Assembly (NCBI GenBank): GCA_039545335.1
Contig: BCIN01000010.1
Location: 515,804 to 540,843, forward strand
Direction: 5' to 3'
DNA length: 25,040 nucleotides
Source: Kondoa subrosea
Lineage: Eukaryota
Made by a program: the position numbers and the translations under genes. Shown one piece after another: positions 2,376 to 25,040 of the stretch (positions within the stretch are counted from its first letter, which is position 1; every line of letters starts with the position of its first letter). The notes beneath the pieces were generated by a model. The model had not been told where the DNA came from. It worked only from the letters and a program-made list of their open reading frames with translations, and ran no database searches.

Positions 2376-3557
2376 ATGTCACAGCAAGAAATGACAGAAC
2401 GATGGGCGAGTCTCGCTGAAGAGCGATTGAATGCGAGAGAATTGGATGATGAGCCTCAGCAAGAAAGGGCAAATCTGGAGCAAGAGGATCAGTTCCGGAT
2501 CAAGCGGAACACTGTGCTGGAGGTTGGAGCCATCTATTCCAGTTTGGCATTCTTTGCTATTCTCGGTGCTTTGGCTAGAATCGGCTTGACTGGCTTAGCG
2601 ACTTATCCTGGTCAATCTGTCTTTAGTACAGCTGCTGCACAAGCTGTGGGATGCGCTCTCATGGGTCTATTCGTCAGGAATAAGGAAGGGTTGGAAAATT
2701 TGTGAGCCAAGACTCATGCTATAAGTAAACCGCTAAGTATTGTAGATATGTTCCATTATACGTTGGATTGACTACTGGCCTATGTGGCTCGATTACGACC
2801 TTTTCGACTTGGATGTTTCAGACCTTTGAAGCGTTTGGCGATTTACCACAACTGCATAATGGCGGTGTTCGCAACGTGAGTTTGTACGCTTACCCACCTT
2901 CATATGTGTTCAAGAAATGTTCAGGTCGTCGACGCCTTCACCCAAATCTACATCACTTTCGCAGTTGCTTCCGCTGGGCTGAGATTTGGCATCCATACTT
3001 CTACTTCCCTTCGACAAATAGGTCTTTTACCTCCAACTCCATCTAAAGATGATTCTCTCAGAGCAAAGCACAAGACACGCAAACTTCATCTTTGCGTGAT
3101 CCTGTTTGGCATCGCTTTTTATGCGGGTACCGGTATTCTGGCGGGTTTAAAACCTTCTTTCCGACACGTCACCTTCCCACTCATCTTTGCACCTCTTGGA
3201 GCTTGGCTTCGATACTTGCTATCCAAACAACTCAATTCTCTCCAACCTTCTTTTCCTCTCGGCACTTTCACAGCCAATATGATCGCAACAGCTCTTATTT
3301 CCGCTTTCACTCTTCTCAAATATACAGAAGCAACAAGTACAATCAGTTGCGTAGTCCTTACTGGTTTGATTGATGGCTTTTGTGGTTGTTTGAGTACGGT
3401 ATCAACTTTCGCTACTGAATTAAGAGGAATGAAAAGGTTTCATGCTTATCGTTATGCTATAACAAGTATTGTCGTCGGTCAAGCTTTGGTCGTACTTGTT
3501 TTTGGTTCGTATTGGTGGTCGAAAGGGTTGAATGGGCAATGTTCGGATCGATATTGA
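2376..3557 (+). CDS. FEX1: Fluoride export channel with two Fluc/CrcB domains
   Basis: Introns 2702-2745 and 2876-2924. Two Fluc signature motifs, GLTTGLCGSITTFSTW and GLIDGFCGCLSTVSTF, plus GALARIGL, APLGAWLRY and FPLGTFTAN, with multiple hydrophobic segments. Confidence 0.93.
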
Positions 3558-7262: not shown

Positions 7263-10200
7263 TCAGCCCCGCAGAGGCTGTCGACAAGCAGGACAATTGC
7301 GCGATCTGGCCAACCATTTCACCATGCAGTCTTGATGGAAGCTAAGATCAATAGCTTCAGATCGATCGTCTCTAGCTACAACACTAAAAAGCTCACCAGT
7401 GTGTACATTCTGGAAAAATGCACGCCATCTCATTGGCTTTGAACTGAGTCAAGCATATCTGCTCCATATTAGTTTGCTTTTTATCAAGCTAACTTTGCTG
7501 CTCACTGTACACTTGTTCACTCGAACTCCAGCACAGCCTAGTTTAGTCTTGGTTTTACCATTTTTGTCTACTCTTCTGCTCTCGACTTCAATTCTCGCAA
7601 TAGATAACAAATCCCAATCAGCGTCAGAAATGACATTGGTAGGTTTGGCTGTTCCAAGCACTTCTTGAATCGTAAGGTAATCTTCGTAATGTCTTCCATC
7701 GTCCGGGGCAGCACCTTGCTCTCTGTCAACTCGAGCCAAAAGTGCATCGAAATCTGTGTAAGCCACAGAACGCTGCCTCTGTAGAGTGGGAGGCGCAACA
7801 GCAGTCTGCGCTGGTGTTGCGCTCGTCGGAATGTCTTGAGCAGCCAATGCTTGTACTGGGATTGGATGAGAAATGACTGGAGATTCTATTGTACCAGAAA
7901 TGGTAGGCGTAGGGCTTTGTGCTTGCGCTGAAGACTCGCTAAGTGTCTGGACATCAGGTCTGGGCGTAGTGTCGCTCGGTACAGCTGCTTCGGAGGTTGA
8001 GACATGTCCGTTGATGCGGGCTCGAGATTTTGTTGGTGTATGTGAATCTGCCTTGATTTCAGGATGCACGACAGACTGAGGATGACTTGAGTCTTCTTCT
8101 TCTATGTCTTCATCCACAGAAGGTTGAACGTCAACAATTGGCGTCGTTGGTGGCGGGGCGAAATATCGAGCATAACGCCATTCTTGACTTCGCGTTCGCC
8201 CATGTGTCGGCGCTACTACAGGTCGCTCTGGCGGAACAGGCGGAAGAGGTCTGAGAGGCTCACGAATCTCGGAGGACGACAGATTGGTACTCTTCCGCGC
8301 TGGAGGTAAAGGAGGAAGTTGCCTAGAGAAACGATTTGCAAGCTTGGGCGGTAATCGTCGAGCGTTATTCCGAGTCAGGATAGCTTCCGTTCGCTGTATG
8401 ATGGGCAGTTCGTCAGATTCATCAGAACTTCCTGCTTCAGAAGAATCGCTGCTGGTACTTGTTTCTGTTGAGGTAGTTCTATGACTTGCAGGTCGATTCC
8501 ATTGTTGCTGATATACTATATCTGGTTCAAGAGGTGGCGGTAAGCTGCTTCGATTGGGTTGGTAAGCCATGAACGAAGGTGTTCCAGGTAAAGGCGGCGA
8601 TTCTGAGGTCATTCGCTGCTTGCCTCTCTGCTTCTCAGACAGTCTCATCGCCCATGAATCTGCCTTAGTCTCTGTCCCGCTGCTTGATTCGTCGACGGAA
8701 GGTAAGTACTCGCTTTGAGGTCTTGCGGATTCAAAAGCTTTCGCTGCAGCGGCCCATCGTCTAGGCGCTGGGATAGGAGGCGGTTTCCGACGGATAGAAA
8801 GAGGTCGAACGAGAAGAGCTGAATGCCTCCGGCCTTCTTCTCTTCTGTACGAATCAGCCGAAGAACCAGCAGCAGGAGAAGTGACTTCTGGTGTCGAAAT
8901 ACGATGAATTTCAGGTCGTACAGGTATGAAAGGAGGGAAAGCACGAATGAGAGGCTCGTCAATTGCTGAGCTCGCTGATGAGTAATGTCCGGGCGCAGTA
9001 TTGCTGTTCTCGTCTTCCAAATCAGAAGAGTCAGTACTGATTGGTTCTGGTGCAGTTTTGACTACGCGAGGAAGAGAAGCATCCAAAATGCTTGTCAGAT
9101 CAGAAACGCCTGGATGATCTGGATGCATTCGCATTGTAATAGGTGTCCATGCGGAAGTTCGAGGCGCTGTAGGTATGAACAAAGATGAAGATGAAATAGT
9201 ATTGCTTAAGACCGATGCCGCCGGCCCAGTCGTCTTTGTCTGAGGAGATTCACTTTCTGCATTAGATTTGACATACAATGGACTACGAGGACTTGGAGCG
9301 CTGATGGTCTCTGAGGAGGGTCTGGGAGGTAGAAGTCTTGTAGGTGAAGGAGGAGGTTGCGAGGTTGGATTTACCTGCACTTCTTGTTGCGGCGAGTCTG
9401 CGGCTTTGCTACTATTGACTAGGCCAAAAGGCCGGCTATTGAAAAGATTGGCTAGTACAGATTGTGCTGGAGCAGATGTGCTTGCTTGCTGCGAGACTGT
9501 AGGTTCGCTTGGGATGCTTTTCGGTCTGATTCTGCTTGGAGTCAGCAATTGACGTATGGAACTAATAGAAGAGCGCTTTATTGGAGTAGTTGATGGTGAA
9601 GGGCGTTGCAATTCGGGCACATTGTGATTCTTGTCTTCGGTGTTGTCTTGTTCAAGCACTGCCGCAGAATCTTGCAAGGGAACAGCGGCTTCTTCCTCAA
9701 CGCTTTCTGATGGTGCGGCCGTTTCCTCAACATCGGCTTGCTGTTCTACTTTTGACAATGCTGGTACGGCGCTTGGCAACCTAGCCTGCTCTGGAGCCGT
9801 TTCTTGCTCTCCTTCAGCCTCATTTCGCCTCGACGCATTCGCATCTTCGCCTTGAGCTTTTCTACGTCTCGCCTGGTCGTTCGCTATCCGAGTTCCCAAG
9901 TCTACACCTCGTTCAATCTCTTCATTCCATATCCTCTCAAATTCCCTTTCTGTCTCAAGCGCGGCAGGAACGACAAACGACCTAGGTAGAGGATATTCAG
10001 GCATATTCAAAGATCCATTTTCAGAGGCAGTAGGTGAAGAAGGAGGTGAGTAGTAAACTGGAGGTGCTTCAAGAGGAAAAGACCATGCCGGCGGAGGTTG
10101 TTCAAAAGCAGGTGGTGCCGCTTCATTCGTTTCTAGCTCCAGACCTGTATGATGTCGCTTCAGAACAATCAAAGTTCGTGAAAACGAAGTGGGATATACC

Positions 10201-11016
10201 TTCGTATACATCACGTCGACGCATAGCAGCTTGATATTCTTGTCTAGCTACATTCTGCGCCTGTTCTTCCGCGTCTTCAATGTTAGAGATAGTGAAGACT
10301 TGTTCCTCTTCTTGAGACTCAGGTTGATTTGCTTCCATGCGAACGGAAGCCACTTCATTAGGGGTCGTCTGTGTTTCTTCAGGTTGGACTACTACAGGCT
10401 TGACCTTCTTGCGCTTCTTCTTCTTAATTACCATAGGTGGTGCAGGTACTTCGTTGACAGATGCAGTAGAAGTAGATGCGATAGGTTGAGCAATTAACAA
10501 AGGCTGATCGGCAAGTGGATGAGAAACTTGTCGAGCTAGATTATTACTGCTTCGGCTTCGAGCATTCAAAGGTGGTCTTTGTAGCGAAGACGCTGAAGGA
10601 ACCGTAGAAGCAAGAGGCAGTGAGACTGTTGATGTATTTGTTTCCAGTGAAGGGAAGGTTGGATTTCGAGGTGCAGCGCTTCTGCTTTTCACAGAAGTCT
10701 TTGCAGCAGTAGCATGTTGCTGTACTGGAGCTACTGGCCTGCGTGCTTGAGCAGTGGAAGGACCAGAAATACTTGGAGTCAAGCCGACATTAGCTACCGC
10801 AGCTTTGACTTGTGAATCAATACTCTTCTTCTTTGGTTTCTTGCTTTTCTTCTTAGGTTCCTCAGCTTTAGCTTTGGGCTGGAGAGCAGGCATTCGTAAA
10901 GAAGGGGTCTCGAGCGACAGCGAGCTCTGATTTGCCGAAAGGTAGACTGTTGAAGACGAGGACGCTGCTGCAGCAACAGCCTGCTGTTGAGCTGACTTCT
11001 TGGGCTTGCTGGTCAT
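7263..11016 (-). CDS. Large, mostly disordered protein (about 1198 aa) with a C-terminal RING-H2 finger; putative E3 ubiquitin ligase
   Basis: Introns 10145-10199, 7459-7505 and 7342-7396 join the ORFs. The C-terminus reads KCTICLTQFKANEMACIFPECTHCFHQDCMVKWLARSRNCPACRQPLRG*, a C3H2C3 pattern preceded by YEDYLTIQEVLG. Confidence 0.9.
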
Positions 11017-11112: not shown

Positions 11113-12498
11113 TTAGAGCTGCGACTTTCCCTTCTCTGGAAGCTCAAAAGTGACCAGCACTTCAGAGCAACCTCCCTCTAAAAACTCCTTGACTTTACTT
11201 GTCACCCTTTGCCTAAGGACCAAGATTTCACTCAGTGATATATCCCTTCTCACAACCAAGCACATCTCCAGCAAAGTATAGCTGCCACTCTTGAGCGATC
11301 GCACTCTTGAGACGCTGCTGATTTCTTTAGCTTCTTCTGCTTCCAAGAACAGCTTAACTTGGCTTGCTACTGTGAGATCTGAGGAAGCGTCCAATAGCTC
11401 CATGGCGGAGGACAAGATGAGAGAAAGCCCTTGTCGAAGAATCATGAATGCTACTGCTAGACCACCTAGTGGATCTGCCATGCTCAATCCCGCCCAACTC
11501 GTGCCCTAACAATTAAATTAGTTTGGAACAGATTCCGACGAAAGGACTAGCTCACAATAGCTGCTAAGGCTATTAGACCAGAGAAGGCATCTGATCGATG
11601 ATGCAACGCATTTGCCTTCAAAACATTTGAGTTTTCCTCTTTAGCGACCTTCATCGCTGATCAAGACATGAGACAATGTAAAATTTCACTCAGCGCTGGA
11701 CTGACTGATTCGATACAGATATTCTTTGAGCAGAACGCTTCCAAGCGCAAACCAAGCTGCATTTGGGTCAACTGATATAGAGTGATCCGCGCTTTCAATG
11801 TGTAGCGAGTGGGAGTGAGAATGTGATGACGAAGAAGAGGAGTGAGAATGGGAAGATGGCCAAAGGGTGTCGCGTAGTAAATTGAAGGAATGCAAACCTA
11901 GAAACGCGTAAGTTTCAAAGAGGGAGCAGCAGAAGATCAGCTCACCTATTCCCACACCTCCTAGTATCAAAAGCACCGATACTATCAAAGATCCTAACGA
12001 TTCGTACTTGCCATAGCCAAAAGGATAGCGATCAGATGCTGGTTTACGCGAGAAGCGCCAGCAGAAGAGGACCACAAAGTCACCAAGTAGATCTGTCATG
12101 TAGATGCTCTAGTAATCTAAAGCGTGTCTAGAAGGTCTACCGACCGCTTAGCGAATGCCCAGCATCTGCAACCAATGCAGCTGAATTTAAAGCCCTGACC
12201 AGCAGATGAGCTGATATCCCTGCAGTACACCATAAGGAACTGACCACCCTGCCAATCCCTTAACAAAGACCAAGCCAACATTCGCAAACAAGCCAATCAA
12301 CGTAATCCTGCTGCCTTTGTCCTTTGATTTCCCGCTCAAAGCAGATAACAGCAAGGTCATTTCATCCTGCTCTTTATGATCATGATCATGCTCATGCGAT
12401 GTTGATGCTGTGTCGTGATTATGTGAATGCGAATGTGACGATGAAGACCGTGAAAGAGAAGGTCGCAGAGCTGCTAACTGAGGGTGCTCCAGTGCCAT
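11113..12498 (-). CDS. MMT2: Cation diffusion facilitator metal transporter, MMT1/MMT2-like (mitochondrial iron); start codon uncertain
   Basis: Spliced GSRITLIGLFANVGLVFVKGLAGWALNSAALVADAGHSLSDLLGDFV, YPFGYGKYESLG, ANALHHRSDA and ADPLGGL, with His-rich HSHSH tracts and a C-terminal dimerisation-domain-like region. Confidence 0.88.

Positions 12499-19475: not shown

Positions 19476-19531
<56 letters not shown>
19476..19531. repeat. (AG)n microsatellite of about 28 units between the divergent paralog B and ATP10 genes
   Basis: Direct reading. Confidence 0.98.
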
Positions 19532-19533
<2 letters not shown>

Positions 19534-19880
19534 GAATGCCCATGGGCTCATGCCGTACAACCGTTTCGAATTTATCATGCCAAAGCGCCTAGATACAAAA
19601 ATGGAATCGGAATTCGAAGTCAATCGAAGCAAAACCTGAGAATTTAGTCAGGGGGTTGAGCATGACCGCATGCTATACAGTACAGTAAGGGCAGCACAGA
19701 GTAATTGAGGAGACAATCACTGGAGAATCAGAATCATTTCGCAGCGATTTTTGAGCAATCACTTGATTGACTGTTCATATAGTTATATCGATGATTTAGT
19801 CGCCTGTCAGTATCGCTTACATCGCTGTTTGGCAATGAGAACGCGTTTTCTTCAAGAGCGCGTTGATTCGCGACGGCGTC

Positions 19881-20937
19881 ATGCAAAATTTGGCAAAGAG
19901 AGCAAGACTGTTGGAGCCTATCCTCGTGACAAGTCCTAGTGCAAGACATGTCGCAACCGAATCCAAACCTATCAAGTCAGCAAATATAGCAGGACCACCT
20001 TATTTACCTCGACCTTTAGGTATTTCTACACCTCCCAGCAGTTCAGTAGCTCCACAACCTTCAGTCAAGTCAAGATTGTTGGATTCAGAAGGAAGGAAAC
20101 AGGAGCGCAAGATTTTAACAAAGCAATTATCGAAATCTTACTTTGAGGATTTGAGCCAATTGTCGCATACTGGAGGAAAACTATGGATCGCTCCAGAAAC
20201 AGTCATTCGATCAGATGTGCGTATAAATCTCGCTTGCCGAGGACCAGAGGGGACTGATCAAAATGTGAGGTGTCGCTAGAAAGCACTCTATTTTCCTGCT
20301 ATACAAGGAATCTCGTTGGCGAATAAGGAGACTAAGAACACTGCTGATCTACTCAAAGATAAAGTTTCCCTTGTTGCTGTTCTAAATACCAAAATCTCTG
20401 TAGTAAATTGTTTCTCCGTTGACCATTTGTTCGAGCTAAGGCTGAGGCGGAAAGGAACATGTCGATTCTTTCTTACCGACAATAGCAAAAGATCAAGCTT
20501 CTGAACCTCTTTTCCAAATAGTCAATGTAAGTTCTTCCTTTCAATGAAATTGTCTTTCAAGCTTGATCGTCGTTCGGACAGATCAATTTACAAGACAACT
20601 TACTCAAATCATGGCTTGTTTCAATGTACCTATCATCACTGAGGAAACAAGTTCCTTTAGAACAGCATGAGAATTATCTTCTGACAAATCAAAACATCGA
20701 ATTGCTCAAAGAAGTGAGTTCCATTTCTTCTCTTAATGGTAATACCTTGCTCATTTCATCTCATAGCCACTGGGGATGCTGAATAAGCATGTAGGCTATC
20801 TATACTTGGTAGATTGGCAGCAAAAAATTCGATGGGCAGGAGTAGGTTTTGCTGAAGAAGGTGGGAAAGAATTATCGGGTTTGAGAACATGTACATCAGT
20901 TCTGTTATCGAGATTAAAAGAGGGTGCAGAGCCCTAA
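19881..20937 (+). CDS. ATP10: Mitochondrial ATP synthase assembly factor Atp10
   Basis: Spliced LPRPLGISTPP, SKSYFEDL...GGKLWIAP...KALYFP, INLQDNLLKSWLV and LGMLNKHVGYLYLVDWQQKIRWAGVG; four short introns; stop TAA 20935-20937. Confidence 0.93.
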
Positions 20938-21103: not shown

Positions 21104-23399
21104 TCATTGAGCGGTGACCAGACCTGCAGCTTTAGGTCGCTTGAACTTGAATTCCGATAGAATGCAAATATGATCCGAAGGATAGTGCTACAATCACAAA
21201 AAGTTAGCATTTGATTTCCTACAAAAGAACGGAAGGTTACTTACAGCATTTGGGAAACCGACAACTTTCGAAAGGTAATTCGGATCCACTTCACCAAGCA
21301 ATCCGGTAACGTTGAGCGTGTTTGAGGTATGCCAAATATAATCCAAAACACCTTTGAAGTGAGGGACGTAGTTGGTGAAAGGTAATTCATTGATGGATTG
21401 ATAAGATGATTTGAGATTGAGCCGATGTTGCAATCCATCTGAAGTATAGGTTCCGTATACATGATCACCGAAATCGTCATGATCATGCGATACTCGACCT
21501 TTCGAGAGGTATTCGTATACACCGGAAGAAGGTTCAGAGTTGAAATCACCGCAGATCACGGTTGGGATCTTTGGTGCTCCTCCTTCCTTGTATGAGGGTG
21601 CATCGGCAGCAAGATCGAAGCGAGGTGGTAGTCGAGAGAATCGTTCGGCTATATTGTCCAATTCATCCATCAACATGGCGACTTGAACAAGCTTGACATC
21701 CCTAAATTCTGGATTCCAGAAAATGTGGACATTGGCGACAATCAACCTTGCGCCGGTCACTTTGTGCTCGAGCAAAGCAATGACAGCGATATCGTCTCTT
21801 GTCATGACTCGGTTGAACATGTCTTGAGTCTTCTTAAAATCAGGTCGACGCATTGCGATCTGACTGAATTCTATGAGCTGTTCTTCAACCAAGGCGAAAC
21901 TGCATCTTTCGTCAGCACTAATCATGAATATGACACGGAACATACGTTGTTGACTTGTAGAAGATAGCGCATCCATCGACGTGCCGCCTTTCATCACCCG
22001 ACATGGTTCTTGCTCTAGATTTCGGATAGTAGACACCATCGTAATCTTGCTGGCTGAGGTTGTGCGCAAAATATTCTTCGTACTGTTCTACATCCACTTC
22101 CTGTGCCCGGTTATTCGTCAGCATCGCTTGAAACGCGACTTCGAAATAGAAACCACTGACTTGCAAGCAGAGAATATCTGCTTCGTAGCCAACCACTTCC
22201 TGCAGAACCAATTCCTTTCTATATTCCCAGCTCAAAGCCCAAGATGGTGTATAACCATACATTGCCGTTGTAGCATATTTCTCGCAAAGAATATTATAAC
22301 TCAAGACTGAGAATCCATCATTCTTGTCTTCTGCATCCTCAGCTGTAGGTAATTCATCTAAATCGATATTGATCCATTCTCTTTCTTGTGGTGGCATAGG
22401 AACTGGACAACTATCCCTCAAGAAAGCCACTAGACCTGAAGTCCCATCTTTTTCCGCAATGACTCGTAATGAGTCTTGCAATGGGTTGCCTTCTATACCA
22501 AGAACGTCTAGTAGATGAAGTGTGCCAAGTTCGGGAGGTAAATTGACAATCAAGTTGTCGAAAAGGAAGAGTTCGCGCAGGGAGGTTAGAGTGCCTAATT
22601 CAGCTGGAACGGAAGTGAGCTTGTTTGAGGACGCATCAAGCCGGACCAAATGATTGAGTTGACATAAGGCTGTAGGTAAGGTTGTAAGGGAATTATGAGG
22701 TATATATAGGGCGGTCAAGAAAGTATAGGCGAAGAGAGCTGGAGCGAGATTCTTGAGTGACATTCCTCCCATATCCAAAGTTGACCAGGAAGAGGAGCCG
22801 GCATCCGTTTCTTTCTCTGATGCTGACAATTGCGAAGGTGAAGAAGAAGCTTTGCTGGCTGATTTAGATTTATCCGAGGCCAAAGAATCCGTCTTCTTAT
22901 GTGAGAGAGTCCGAGCAGTAGCTACTGCACTACCCGGGCGAGCGAGACCAGGTGGACCAGAGGAAGAGATGAAAGATGTTTCGCTTGTCGAGACCAGCTT
23001 TTCTTTCGGATCAACTATAGACAGAGCTGAACTGTTGTGACCTCTTTTCTCCAATTGTGCGACCCTTGCGTGATGATGAGGTGAAGCAGCCATCCGAGAG
23101 GCAGCAGCATATTCGAGTTGCTTTGCCCAAGCTGGTGAAATAGCTTGTGCGGGTTGGGACTGCGCTTGAGATTGGACTTGCCGTTCTCTAGGATTAGGCG
23201 TTTGCGAATGCAGGGAAGATCCGCTGTTAGGATAGCCATGTTGTTGCAAGTTTCCGCCAGCGTGATGGCCGTGGTAATTATTGGGCGGTAAATTGTAAGG
23301 ATTATAGCCCGAGAAGGAGTGCTGGCCATTTTGTTGGTTGCCAGATGAGCCAGAGTTGTTCCCATTGGCCGCGTTGTAGTTCTGTTGTAGCTTGAGCAT
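21104..23399 (-). CDS. CCR4: CCR4-NOT deadenylase subunit Ccr4 (LRR plus EEP nuclease domain)
   Basis: Asn/Gln/His-rich N-terminus, SPHHHAR, LRRs, SYNILC, CLQEV, CGDFNS, LDYIW, FPNAHYPSDH. Introns 22101-22160, 21900-21945 and 21188-21244. Confidence 0.97.
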
Positions 23400-23877: not shown

Positions 23878-24670
23878 CTACAACCTCAGCCCTCTTGCTT
23901 TGCTGCCCAACGGTCTCATTGTCGGCCTTTGCACTCGAGTCTTCTTGATTGGTGATCCTTGATACACTACTGTGCTGGAGGTTGGATCGTCAGCGTGATC
24001 TTCCGCATCCGGTAAGACGAGAATCCTTCCGCCTGTCGGTGTAGGTAGCTCATACGCATCAGAGGGTTGAGGTTTAGGTGTCTAGTATTGATCATATCAG
24101 TCAAAGTACAGGAAGCAACAAGCCAAAGAAACTTACCATTGGCGAGAAGTGGAAACCCCCATTGCCATTATACGCTTCCGTAACATTGGCCAGAACAGGT
24201 GAATGAGGTGGTGTAGCCGTCTCTTCTCTCAAAGCTTTCCACATTTCTTTCCCCTTCACTTGCTGTTTTCCGAAGACGACAGAAGTACTTGAAGCTTTCT
24301 TCATCGGATCTCCTTTACTTCCTCCTTCTCCTCTCATCATACTGTTCAACCTCTTATTCTGTAGTTTCGCTCCTGGATCATTAGGTGCGAAGAAACCTAG
24401 AGTTTGCGACAGTTGATCTGCGAGGTTGGAAACAGGCGAAGCGAGTTCGTATGGAATTTTGCCGTTGAAAGGAGTGGATTTCTTTGATGGTGCTATAGAT
24501 GTGAGAGCTGAAGTGTTCTCTTTATTGCTTAGAGCTGAAGGATGCTGTTTTCGCTTCAAAGGAACGCCATTGATGTTTCTAGCGCTGCTGCTTCCTTGTT
24601 GCGGCTCTTCTATATCCATATCGCAGTGCACAGCGAAGATGGAGCCTTTGGCTTTCCTTGTGGTAGACAT
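23878..24670 (-). CDS. Small disordered protein with ABBA, KEN and D-box-like motifs; candidate APC/C substrate or inhibitor
   Basis: Exon 1 24137-24670, intron 24082-24136, exon 2 ending ...QGSPIKKTRVQRPTMRPLGSKARGLRL* at 23878. FAVHCD at aa 12-17 and KEN at aa 50-52. Confidence 0.75.
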
Positions 24671-24994: not shown

Positions 24995-25040
24995 TTCTTC
25001 TTCTTCTTCTTCTTCTTCTTCTTCTTCTTCTTCTTCTTCT
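24995..25040. repeat. (TTC)n microsatellite running off the window end
   Basis: Direct reading. Confidence 0.97.

Follow-up and report, generated by a model that had tools for sequence, protein, structure and literature searches.

We asked whether the minus-strand reading at 24670-23878 of the window, the 25,040-nt stretch of Kondoa subrosea DNA analyzed here, is a real gene, and whether its product acts on the APC/C. The original prediction had placed here a candidate unannotated, lineage-specific APC/C pseudosubstrate inhibitor that follows the logic of Acm1, Mes1, and Emi1, and every string on which it relied was found in place. Its gene, its docking motifs, and its disorder held up, whereas its D-boxes, its GLRL tail, its Emi1-like parts, and homology to the named inhibitors did not. 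From sequence comparison, the product is probably a cell-cycle regulator that has no name as yet.

The gene, as a predicted two-exon model, is genuine (Table 1). Its exons, joined across a GTAAGT..TAG intron, give exactly 245 aa (178 + 67), where a protein of about this length had been proposed, and the N-termini of 12 of 14 relatives line up with the Met at 24670. Splicing is required to enter the exon-2 frame, because the unspliced reading ends after 11 further codons. The database gene calls of the relatives continue with Val (GTN) right past the island that ends in SP, which fits an unspliced intron at the same place, and a GT..AG interval also lies near this position in L001, a relative found at a metagenome locus. 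The interval in L001 (positions 1089-1126, from where the SP island stops to the continuing frame) is only 38 nt, which would be unusually short for an intron, so the exon-2 reading of this GC-rich locus is tentative. A different second exon had been named as a danger to the prediction; the middle of exon 2 matches the C-terminus of another relative, P0006 (50% identity over 40 aa, E = 8e-11), and this match supports exon 2 as coding. An alternative acceptor at 24050-24049, which is in frame and would remove 11 residues, was set aside in favor of the first AG after a branch-point-like CTGAT.

Table 1. Coordinates in the window of the predicted gene, the conserved segments of its product, and two upstream sequence words; residue numbers refer to the 245-aa product.
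Feature	Start	End	Strand	Remarks
Exon 1	24137	24670	-	178 aa; ATG at 24670 is the first start codon past an in-frame stop
Intron	24082	24136	-	55 nt, GTAAGT..TAG, phase 0
Exon 2 with stop	23878	24081	-	67 aa at 24081-23881, stop codon at 23880-23878; frame opens right at the acceptor
ABBA-type motif FAVHCD (residues 12-17)	24620	24637	-	Family form hydrophobic-F-x-V-[YFH]-x-D-[DE]
NKEN, KEN box with favored Asn/Asp before K (residues 49-52)	24515	24526	-	KEN itself is residues 50-52 (24515-24523); [DN]KEN in 16/16
Island F-x-G-K-x-P-[FY]-x-L-A-S-P (residues 68-79)	24434	24469	-	Mean column conservation 0.76; Ser78 invariant, in an SP site
Island Q-x-L-G-F (residues 89-93)	24392	24406	-	Mean column conservation 0.78; Q89, L91, and G92 invariant; closes a predicted short helix
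Island G-D-P-x-K (residues 120-124)	24299	24313	-	Mean column conservation 0.65
Longest island SPVLANVTEAYNGNGGFHFSP (residues 157-177; SPVLANVTEAYxGxGGFHxSP)	24140	24202	-	Mean column conservation 0.76; two flanking SP sites
Part of exon 2 matched by a relative, ...ILVLPDAEDH...VVYQGSPIKKTRV	23932	24051	-	Holds LPD and the full CDK consensus SPIK (residues 221-224)
Basic tail RPTMRPLGSKARGLRL	23881	23928	-	Covers RPTMRPLGSK (23899-23928) and the GLRL end (23881-23892); not conserved
ACGCGT (MCB-type hexamer)	24873	24878		203 nt upstream of the ATG
Octamer GTAAACAA	24842	24849	+	172 nt upstream of the ATG, 24 nt from ACGCGT; sole copy in the window

The product has a pI of 9.8, 75% disorder-promoting residues, 21 Lys, and a single Cys, and it carries eight [ST]P sites against 4.2 expected (a count of eight was reached in 3.7% of shuffles). 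AlphaFold2, given a 14-sequence alignment, returned a mean pLDDT of 53 and a pTM of 0.16, with only two short helices (residues 83-89 and 163-168), and no Pfam family matched either exon even with E up to 10. The 245-aa protein is thus, by prediction, intrinsically disordered, and the earlier impression that it has no folded domain was borne out. Among the 16 sequences of the family assembled below, none had a Pfam cyclin domain above threshold. The sub-threshold matches, which we did not count as family membership, were Cyclin_N2, the N-terminal part of cyclin A that binds the APC/C, which in P0010 covers residues 8-52 and is the one near-match that falls in the right place (E = 0.15; 13 bits vs. 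a cut-off of 24), DUF5882 (E = 0.068), and SR-25 (E = 5.8), each in one member; a literature word search for DUF5882 returned no papers. A family profile searched against all PDB chains with E up to 10 gave just two chance matches to cytochrome c and no Acm1, Emi1, or securin chain, in a bank that includes Cdh1-Acm1 (4BH6) and separase-securin entries. The protein atlas gave no usable neighbor of the window protein (best score 0.79) and none of P0008.

Relatives were collected in several searches. A word-indexed search gave three close relatives among 102 candidates (55-59% identity), and a profile of these three, run against 1.84 billion representatives, gave 14 matches at E up to 0.001. Two of these (P0014 and P0018) are internally repetitive and match one short stretch only, and were excluded; the remaining 12 were retained, P0019 was added by a second indexed search, and L001, of which exon 1 was translated for the alignment, by a metagenome scan. 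An earlier metagenome scan had produced 213 pattern matches with none confirmed; the second produced this one locus. With P0005 omitted as near-identical to P0004, the final alignment comprised 16 sequences with 26-67% identity to the window protein, a small family consisting mostly of unspliced metagenome gene calls. The database relatives have neither names nor precomputed Pfam domains, and scoring of 7994 candidates turned up no longer or fused form of the protein, a weak negative. The assignment to fungi and basidiomycetes is drawn from gene structure and from the original prediction. Searches of the accessible full texts found no paper that deals with the family and none with a basidiomycete securin or APC/C inhibitor, and five peptide words of the family were absent from these texts; the available part of a preprint on Cryptococcus Bub1 does not mention such a protein.

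The two motifs at the center of the original prediction were retained in this family, the ABBA-type motif in 15 of 16 sequences and the KEN box in all 16. The pattern F.[ILV][FHY].[DE] lies near the N-terminus of every member except P0013, whose gene model begins later. A review gives the ABBA form as Fx[ILV][FY]x[DE] (PMC5717348, in excerpt), and 12 members, in which position 4 is Tyr or Phe, fit it strictly; in the window protein and its two closest relatives this position is His, which falls outside that form. KEN is invariant, the residue before it is always Asp or Asn, and Pro follows within two residues in 5 of the 16 members; Asp or Asn at P-1 and Pro shortly after KEN are the favored flanks of this motif (PMC5717348, in excerpt). 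The gap from ABBA to KEN ranges from 20 to 59 residues across the family and is 32 in the window protein. Shuffling exon 1 of the window gene produced the ABBA pattern 0.3% of the time and KEN 5.6% of the time, and the corresponding ranges for shuffles of single members were 0.2-1.1% and 0.4-5.6%, so that the two together are expected by chance in less than about 0.1% per sequence. Mean column conservation is 0.72 in the ABBA motif and 0.88 in KEN vs. 0.28-0.44 in the linkers. Both motifs are known to act by binding the Cdc20/Cdh1 WD40 domain (PMC5717348, in the part available), and their retention across 26-67% identity supports docking on that domain. The comparative evidence is good that both would be functional.

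The D-boxes of the original prediction fared differently. The 245-aa product has no RxxL and no [RKHQ]xxL, and no positionally conserved RxxL was found in 14 relatives. Against the D-box form RxxLx[D/E][O]xN[N/S] (PMC5717348, in excerpt), SPVLANVTEAY (residues 157-167, 24170-24202) fits just Leu4 and the hydrophobic position 7. Its position 1 is the Ser of an SP site, and at its position 9 (E165) 12 of the 16 members have Glu and four have Gln, not Asn; this best-conserved island, which had been called D-box-like, is therefore without the D-box Arg and Asn. The second supposed D-box, RPTMRPLGSK, misses the pattern as well and occurs in none of the four relatives with a readable C-terminus. The same four (P0006, P0013, P0017, and exon 2 of L001) differ from the window protein in the tail, have no RxxL in their C-termini, and lack any ending like GLRL, which is itself not LRRL; three of the four rest on possibly imperfect database gene calls.

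It had been asked whether only the predicted motifs are conserved. They are not: conservation is concentrated in ABBA, KEN, and four more islands (Table 1), and the linkers between these six are poorly conserved. In the longest island, L160, A161, A166, G169, F173, S176, and P177 are invariant, and one of the two predicted helices falls within it. The island at residues 68-79 lies 14-26 aa past KEN in 15 of 16 members, and 8 of 16 have an acidic residue at its position 75; the sole invariant Glu of the whole alignment is that of KEN. The SP sites S78, S157, and S176 are in invariant or near-invariant columns. The four extra islands argue for a second binding function besides coactivator docking. 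Several known motifs were considered by eye and dropped: a PIP box at Q.LGFF (one residue short, aromatics not conserved), a Mad2-interaction motif at KIPYELASP (second position not conserved), an RVxF motif at KGSIF (wrong spacing), and a PxIxIT motif at PVLANV.

We tentatively prefer the reading in which the protein docks on the APC/C as a client, is probably degraded as a substrate, and has an effector patch regulated by CDK; we hold this to be plausible rather than established. The ABBA-type motif and [D/N]KEN would attach the protein to the WD40 propeller of the coactivators Cdc20 and/or Cdh1, the former in the groove that separates blades 2 and 3 and the latter on the top face, and docking would tie the abundance of the protein to the cell cycle, as happens with cyclin A, Clb5, and securins. 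The four downstream islands, chiefly the one of 21 residues, would make up an effector part of their own with a binding partner, and CDK, acting on the three conserved SP sites beside them, may switch this binding. We infer docking, degradation, CDK control, and the effector role. Three features favor a substrate with its own effector function: ABBA and KEN stand at the very start of the protein, where cyclins and securins also have such motifs, lysines are plentiful (21), many of them beside the motifs, and the four further islands point to a second partner. The N-terminal region of cyclin A and Clb5 is a partial precedent, in that an ABBA-type motif is used there with other degrons for APC/C recognition (PMC5717348, in excerpt), and the sub-threshold Cyclin_N2 match in one member recalls it; the window family differs in having neither a cyclin box nor a D-box. 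Cyclin A and Clb5, the ABBA-bearing substrates named in that review, also carry a D-box (PMC5717348, in excerpt), and the absence of one here weakens the reading as a processive substrate. We did not assign the protein to the Acm1, Emi1, Mes1, or securin families, because features that define them were looked for and not found.

A wider proposal, possible but doubtful in our judgment, is that these proteins form a phylum-level, free-standing ABBA-KEN family (ABBA-KEN-ABBA in one clade). Such a family might take a role so far unassigned in these fungi, as either the missing securin, with ABBA rather than a D-box as its degron partner, or an inhibitor of Cdc20/Cdh1 that dispenses with the D-box, like a detached BubR1 cassette.

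Inhibition is also the essence of the original prediction. On this reading a lineage-specific inhibitor would grip Cdc20/Cdh1 tightly by its ABBA and KEN motifs, escape ubiquitination, and block the coactivator or sequester it in the manner of Acm1, Mes1, or the ABBA-KEN-ABBA cassette of BubR1/Mad3. We regard this as unlikely for the protein at hand. The conserved order, ABBA then KEN, is the core of the inhibitory cassette of BubR1/Mad3, and the ABBA1-KEN2-ABBA2 arrangement of BubR1/Mad3/MadBub resembles the window family in having both motifs in one disordered stretch with variable spacing; the spacing of the BubR1 cassette is itself highly variable (PMC5204127, in excerpt). A second ABBA after KEN is present in three of 16 members (P0009-P0011), in which the island after KEN satisfies the wide ABBA pattern, and it is missing from the other 13, the window protein among them. 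Two of the three, P0009 and P0010, have a further strict ABBA, F[KR]VFGD, just before the K-Q-P-F island, giving ABBA-KEN-ABBA(-ABBA-like). The window protein also departs from BubR1/Mad3/MadBub in being free-standing, without TPR, KEN1, GLEBS, or kinase. Acm1 of budding yeast is alike in being small and disordered, with ABBA (its A-motif, around residue 65; PMC5717348, in excerpt) followed by KEN and with CDK sites. It is unlike in blocking Cdh1 with a D-box too, the window protein having none and its family four extra islands, and the PDB profile search detected no sequence relationship. Emi1 and Mes1, the latter a D-box/KEN protein, are alike in logic only, as short motifs that engage a coactivator. 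All three inhibitors rely on a D-box pseudosubstrate (PMC5717348 and PMC3084671, both in excerpt), and Emi1 needs a zinc-binding region and an LRRL tail as well (PMC5717348, in excerpt); in the window family each of these is absent or unconserved, the single Cys leaving no Emi1-type zinc-binding region. That cyclin A and Clb5 have D-boxes (PMC5717348, in excerpt) and the window protein has none is a point in favor of inhibition; a high-affinity binder without a D-box could compete while remaining unprocessed. Inhibition gives the four further islands no role and does not call for 21 lysines, many adjoining the motifs. The 21-residue island, which has conserved SP sites at its flanks, and the other three speak for a second partner, for which an inhibitor model has no need.

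Similarly unlikely, we think, is a disordered regulator with no connection to the APC/C, in which the islands serve other partners and ABBA and KEN are kept for a different reason. Both patterns are short, and motifs of that kind may be retained on account of other partners; islands that carry no APC/C meaning show the strongest conservation, and a D-box is lacking. The long island contains L-x-x-[IV]-x-E, which could be a PP2A-B56 docking site, and LANVTE agrees with this pattern in 12 of 16 members. On the other side, two independent coactivator-binding patterns are conserved jointly, in the usual N-terminal position and with the preferred KEN flanks, and a joint chance below about 0.1% per sequence gains further weight from conservation over 26-67% identity.

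Within the preferred reading as a docked client, the leading candidate for a more specific identity would be a divergent securin, although outright identification as the basidiomycete securin, with N-terminal degrons for destruction by the APC/C at anaphase and islands that wrap separase, one of them as an active-site pseudosubstrate, strikes us as quite improbable. Securins are small and disordered, are conserved among close relatives only, and are defined by function, and many lineages have no identified one (PMC6690013 and PMC6743357, both in excerpt). The securins Pds1, Cut2, PTTG1, and Patronus, and the candidate Eip1, are like the window family in size, disorder, N-terminal APC/C motifs, downstream patches, CDK sites, and fast divergence, so that the layout matches, with N-terminal degrons followed by several conserved patches and CDK sites, and our literature search yielded no named basidiomycete securin. 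Exon 2 of the window gene adds ELPTP at residue 189, which has the E-x-x-nonArg-P form of human EIEKFFP, and LPD at 201, seven residues past the end of ELPTP, which recalls LPE; in securins the LPE/VPE docking motif lies 11-14 residues past the pseudosubstrate (PMC6858450). P0006 retains ILP-SEDH (LPSED) with no Glu aligned to ELPTP, and exon 2 of L001 has neither ELPTP nor LPD, so these LPE-like features are confined to the clade of the window protein. The securin profile is KEN, a D-box, and an invariant Glu in a conserved patch (PMC6690013, in excerpt). Here KEN is present, the D-box is absent with ABBA in its stead, and no patch has an invariant Glu, that of the best patch being replaced by Gln in four members and that of F.GK.PF.LASP being acidic in half; nor did the PDB profile search return a securin chain.

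Anaphase regulators such as securins and APC/C inhibitors change so quickly that most fungal lineages have none assigned, a point stressed for Candida and for plants (PMC6690013 and PMC6743357, both in excerpt). A conserved ABBA and KEN in an otherwise unrecognizable family make a concrete and cheaply testable candidate, in a fungal group that includes important pathogens and model mushrooms. As a candidate motif-driven APC/C client or regulator the family appears to be new, judged against the full texts searched. If the reading is true, its pairing of ABBA with KEN in the complete absence of a D-box would be rare, and would bear on how the APC/C coactivators read combinations of motifs.

The region upstream of the gene adds little. 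The MCB site cited in the original prediction, ACGCGT, is present, and its worth as cell-cycle evidence is weak because the hexamer is frequent: the window has nine copies (about 1 per 2.8 kb) against 2.5 expected, nine was reached in 0 of 100 shuffles, and a single copy would turn up by chance in about one of eight promoters of 370 nt. The hexamer is enriched over the whole region, not at this gene alone. The nearby GTAAACAA is presumably a forkhead-type octamer; it was spotted post hoc and is a hint only, and the 7-mer GTAAACA occurs three times in the window. ACGCGT and the sole GTAAACAA together would lend weak support to a cell-cycle role.

The next gene downstream, in the same orientation, combines leucine-rich repeats with an Exo_endo_phos domain, which fits the CCR4 gene that had been recognized there. 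Neighboring fragments at 1517-2038, 2904-3557, 11686-12099, 19863-20279, and 21194-23399 correspond to dihydroxy-acid dehydratase, a CrcB fluoride channel, cation efflux, ATP10, and the CCR4-like LRR and Exo_endo_phos protein, ordinary housekeeping genes with no cell-cycle theme. A minus-strand frame of 921 codons (7449-10214) and an adjoining one of 297 codons (10123-11016, also minus strand) had no Pfam match at E up to 1e-4, and may be a large gene of unknown family. The dip in GC to 0.28 in the 16-17 kb bin is an artefact, and open reading frames there are meaningless, because the stretch is mostly N. Simple repeats include (AG)28 at 19476-19531 and, upstream of the gene, a 17-copy (TTC)n / (GAA)n microsatellite that runs from 24989 to the window end at 25040.
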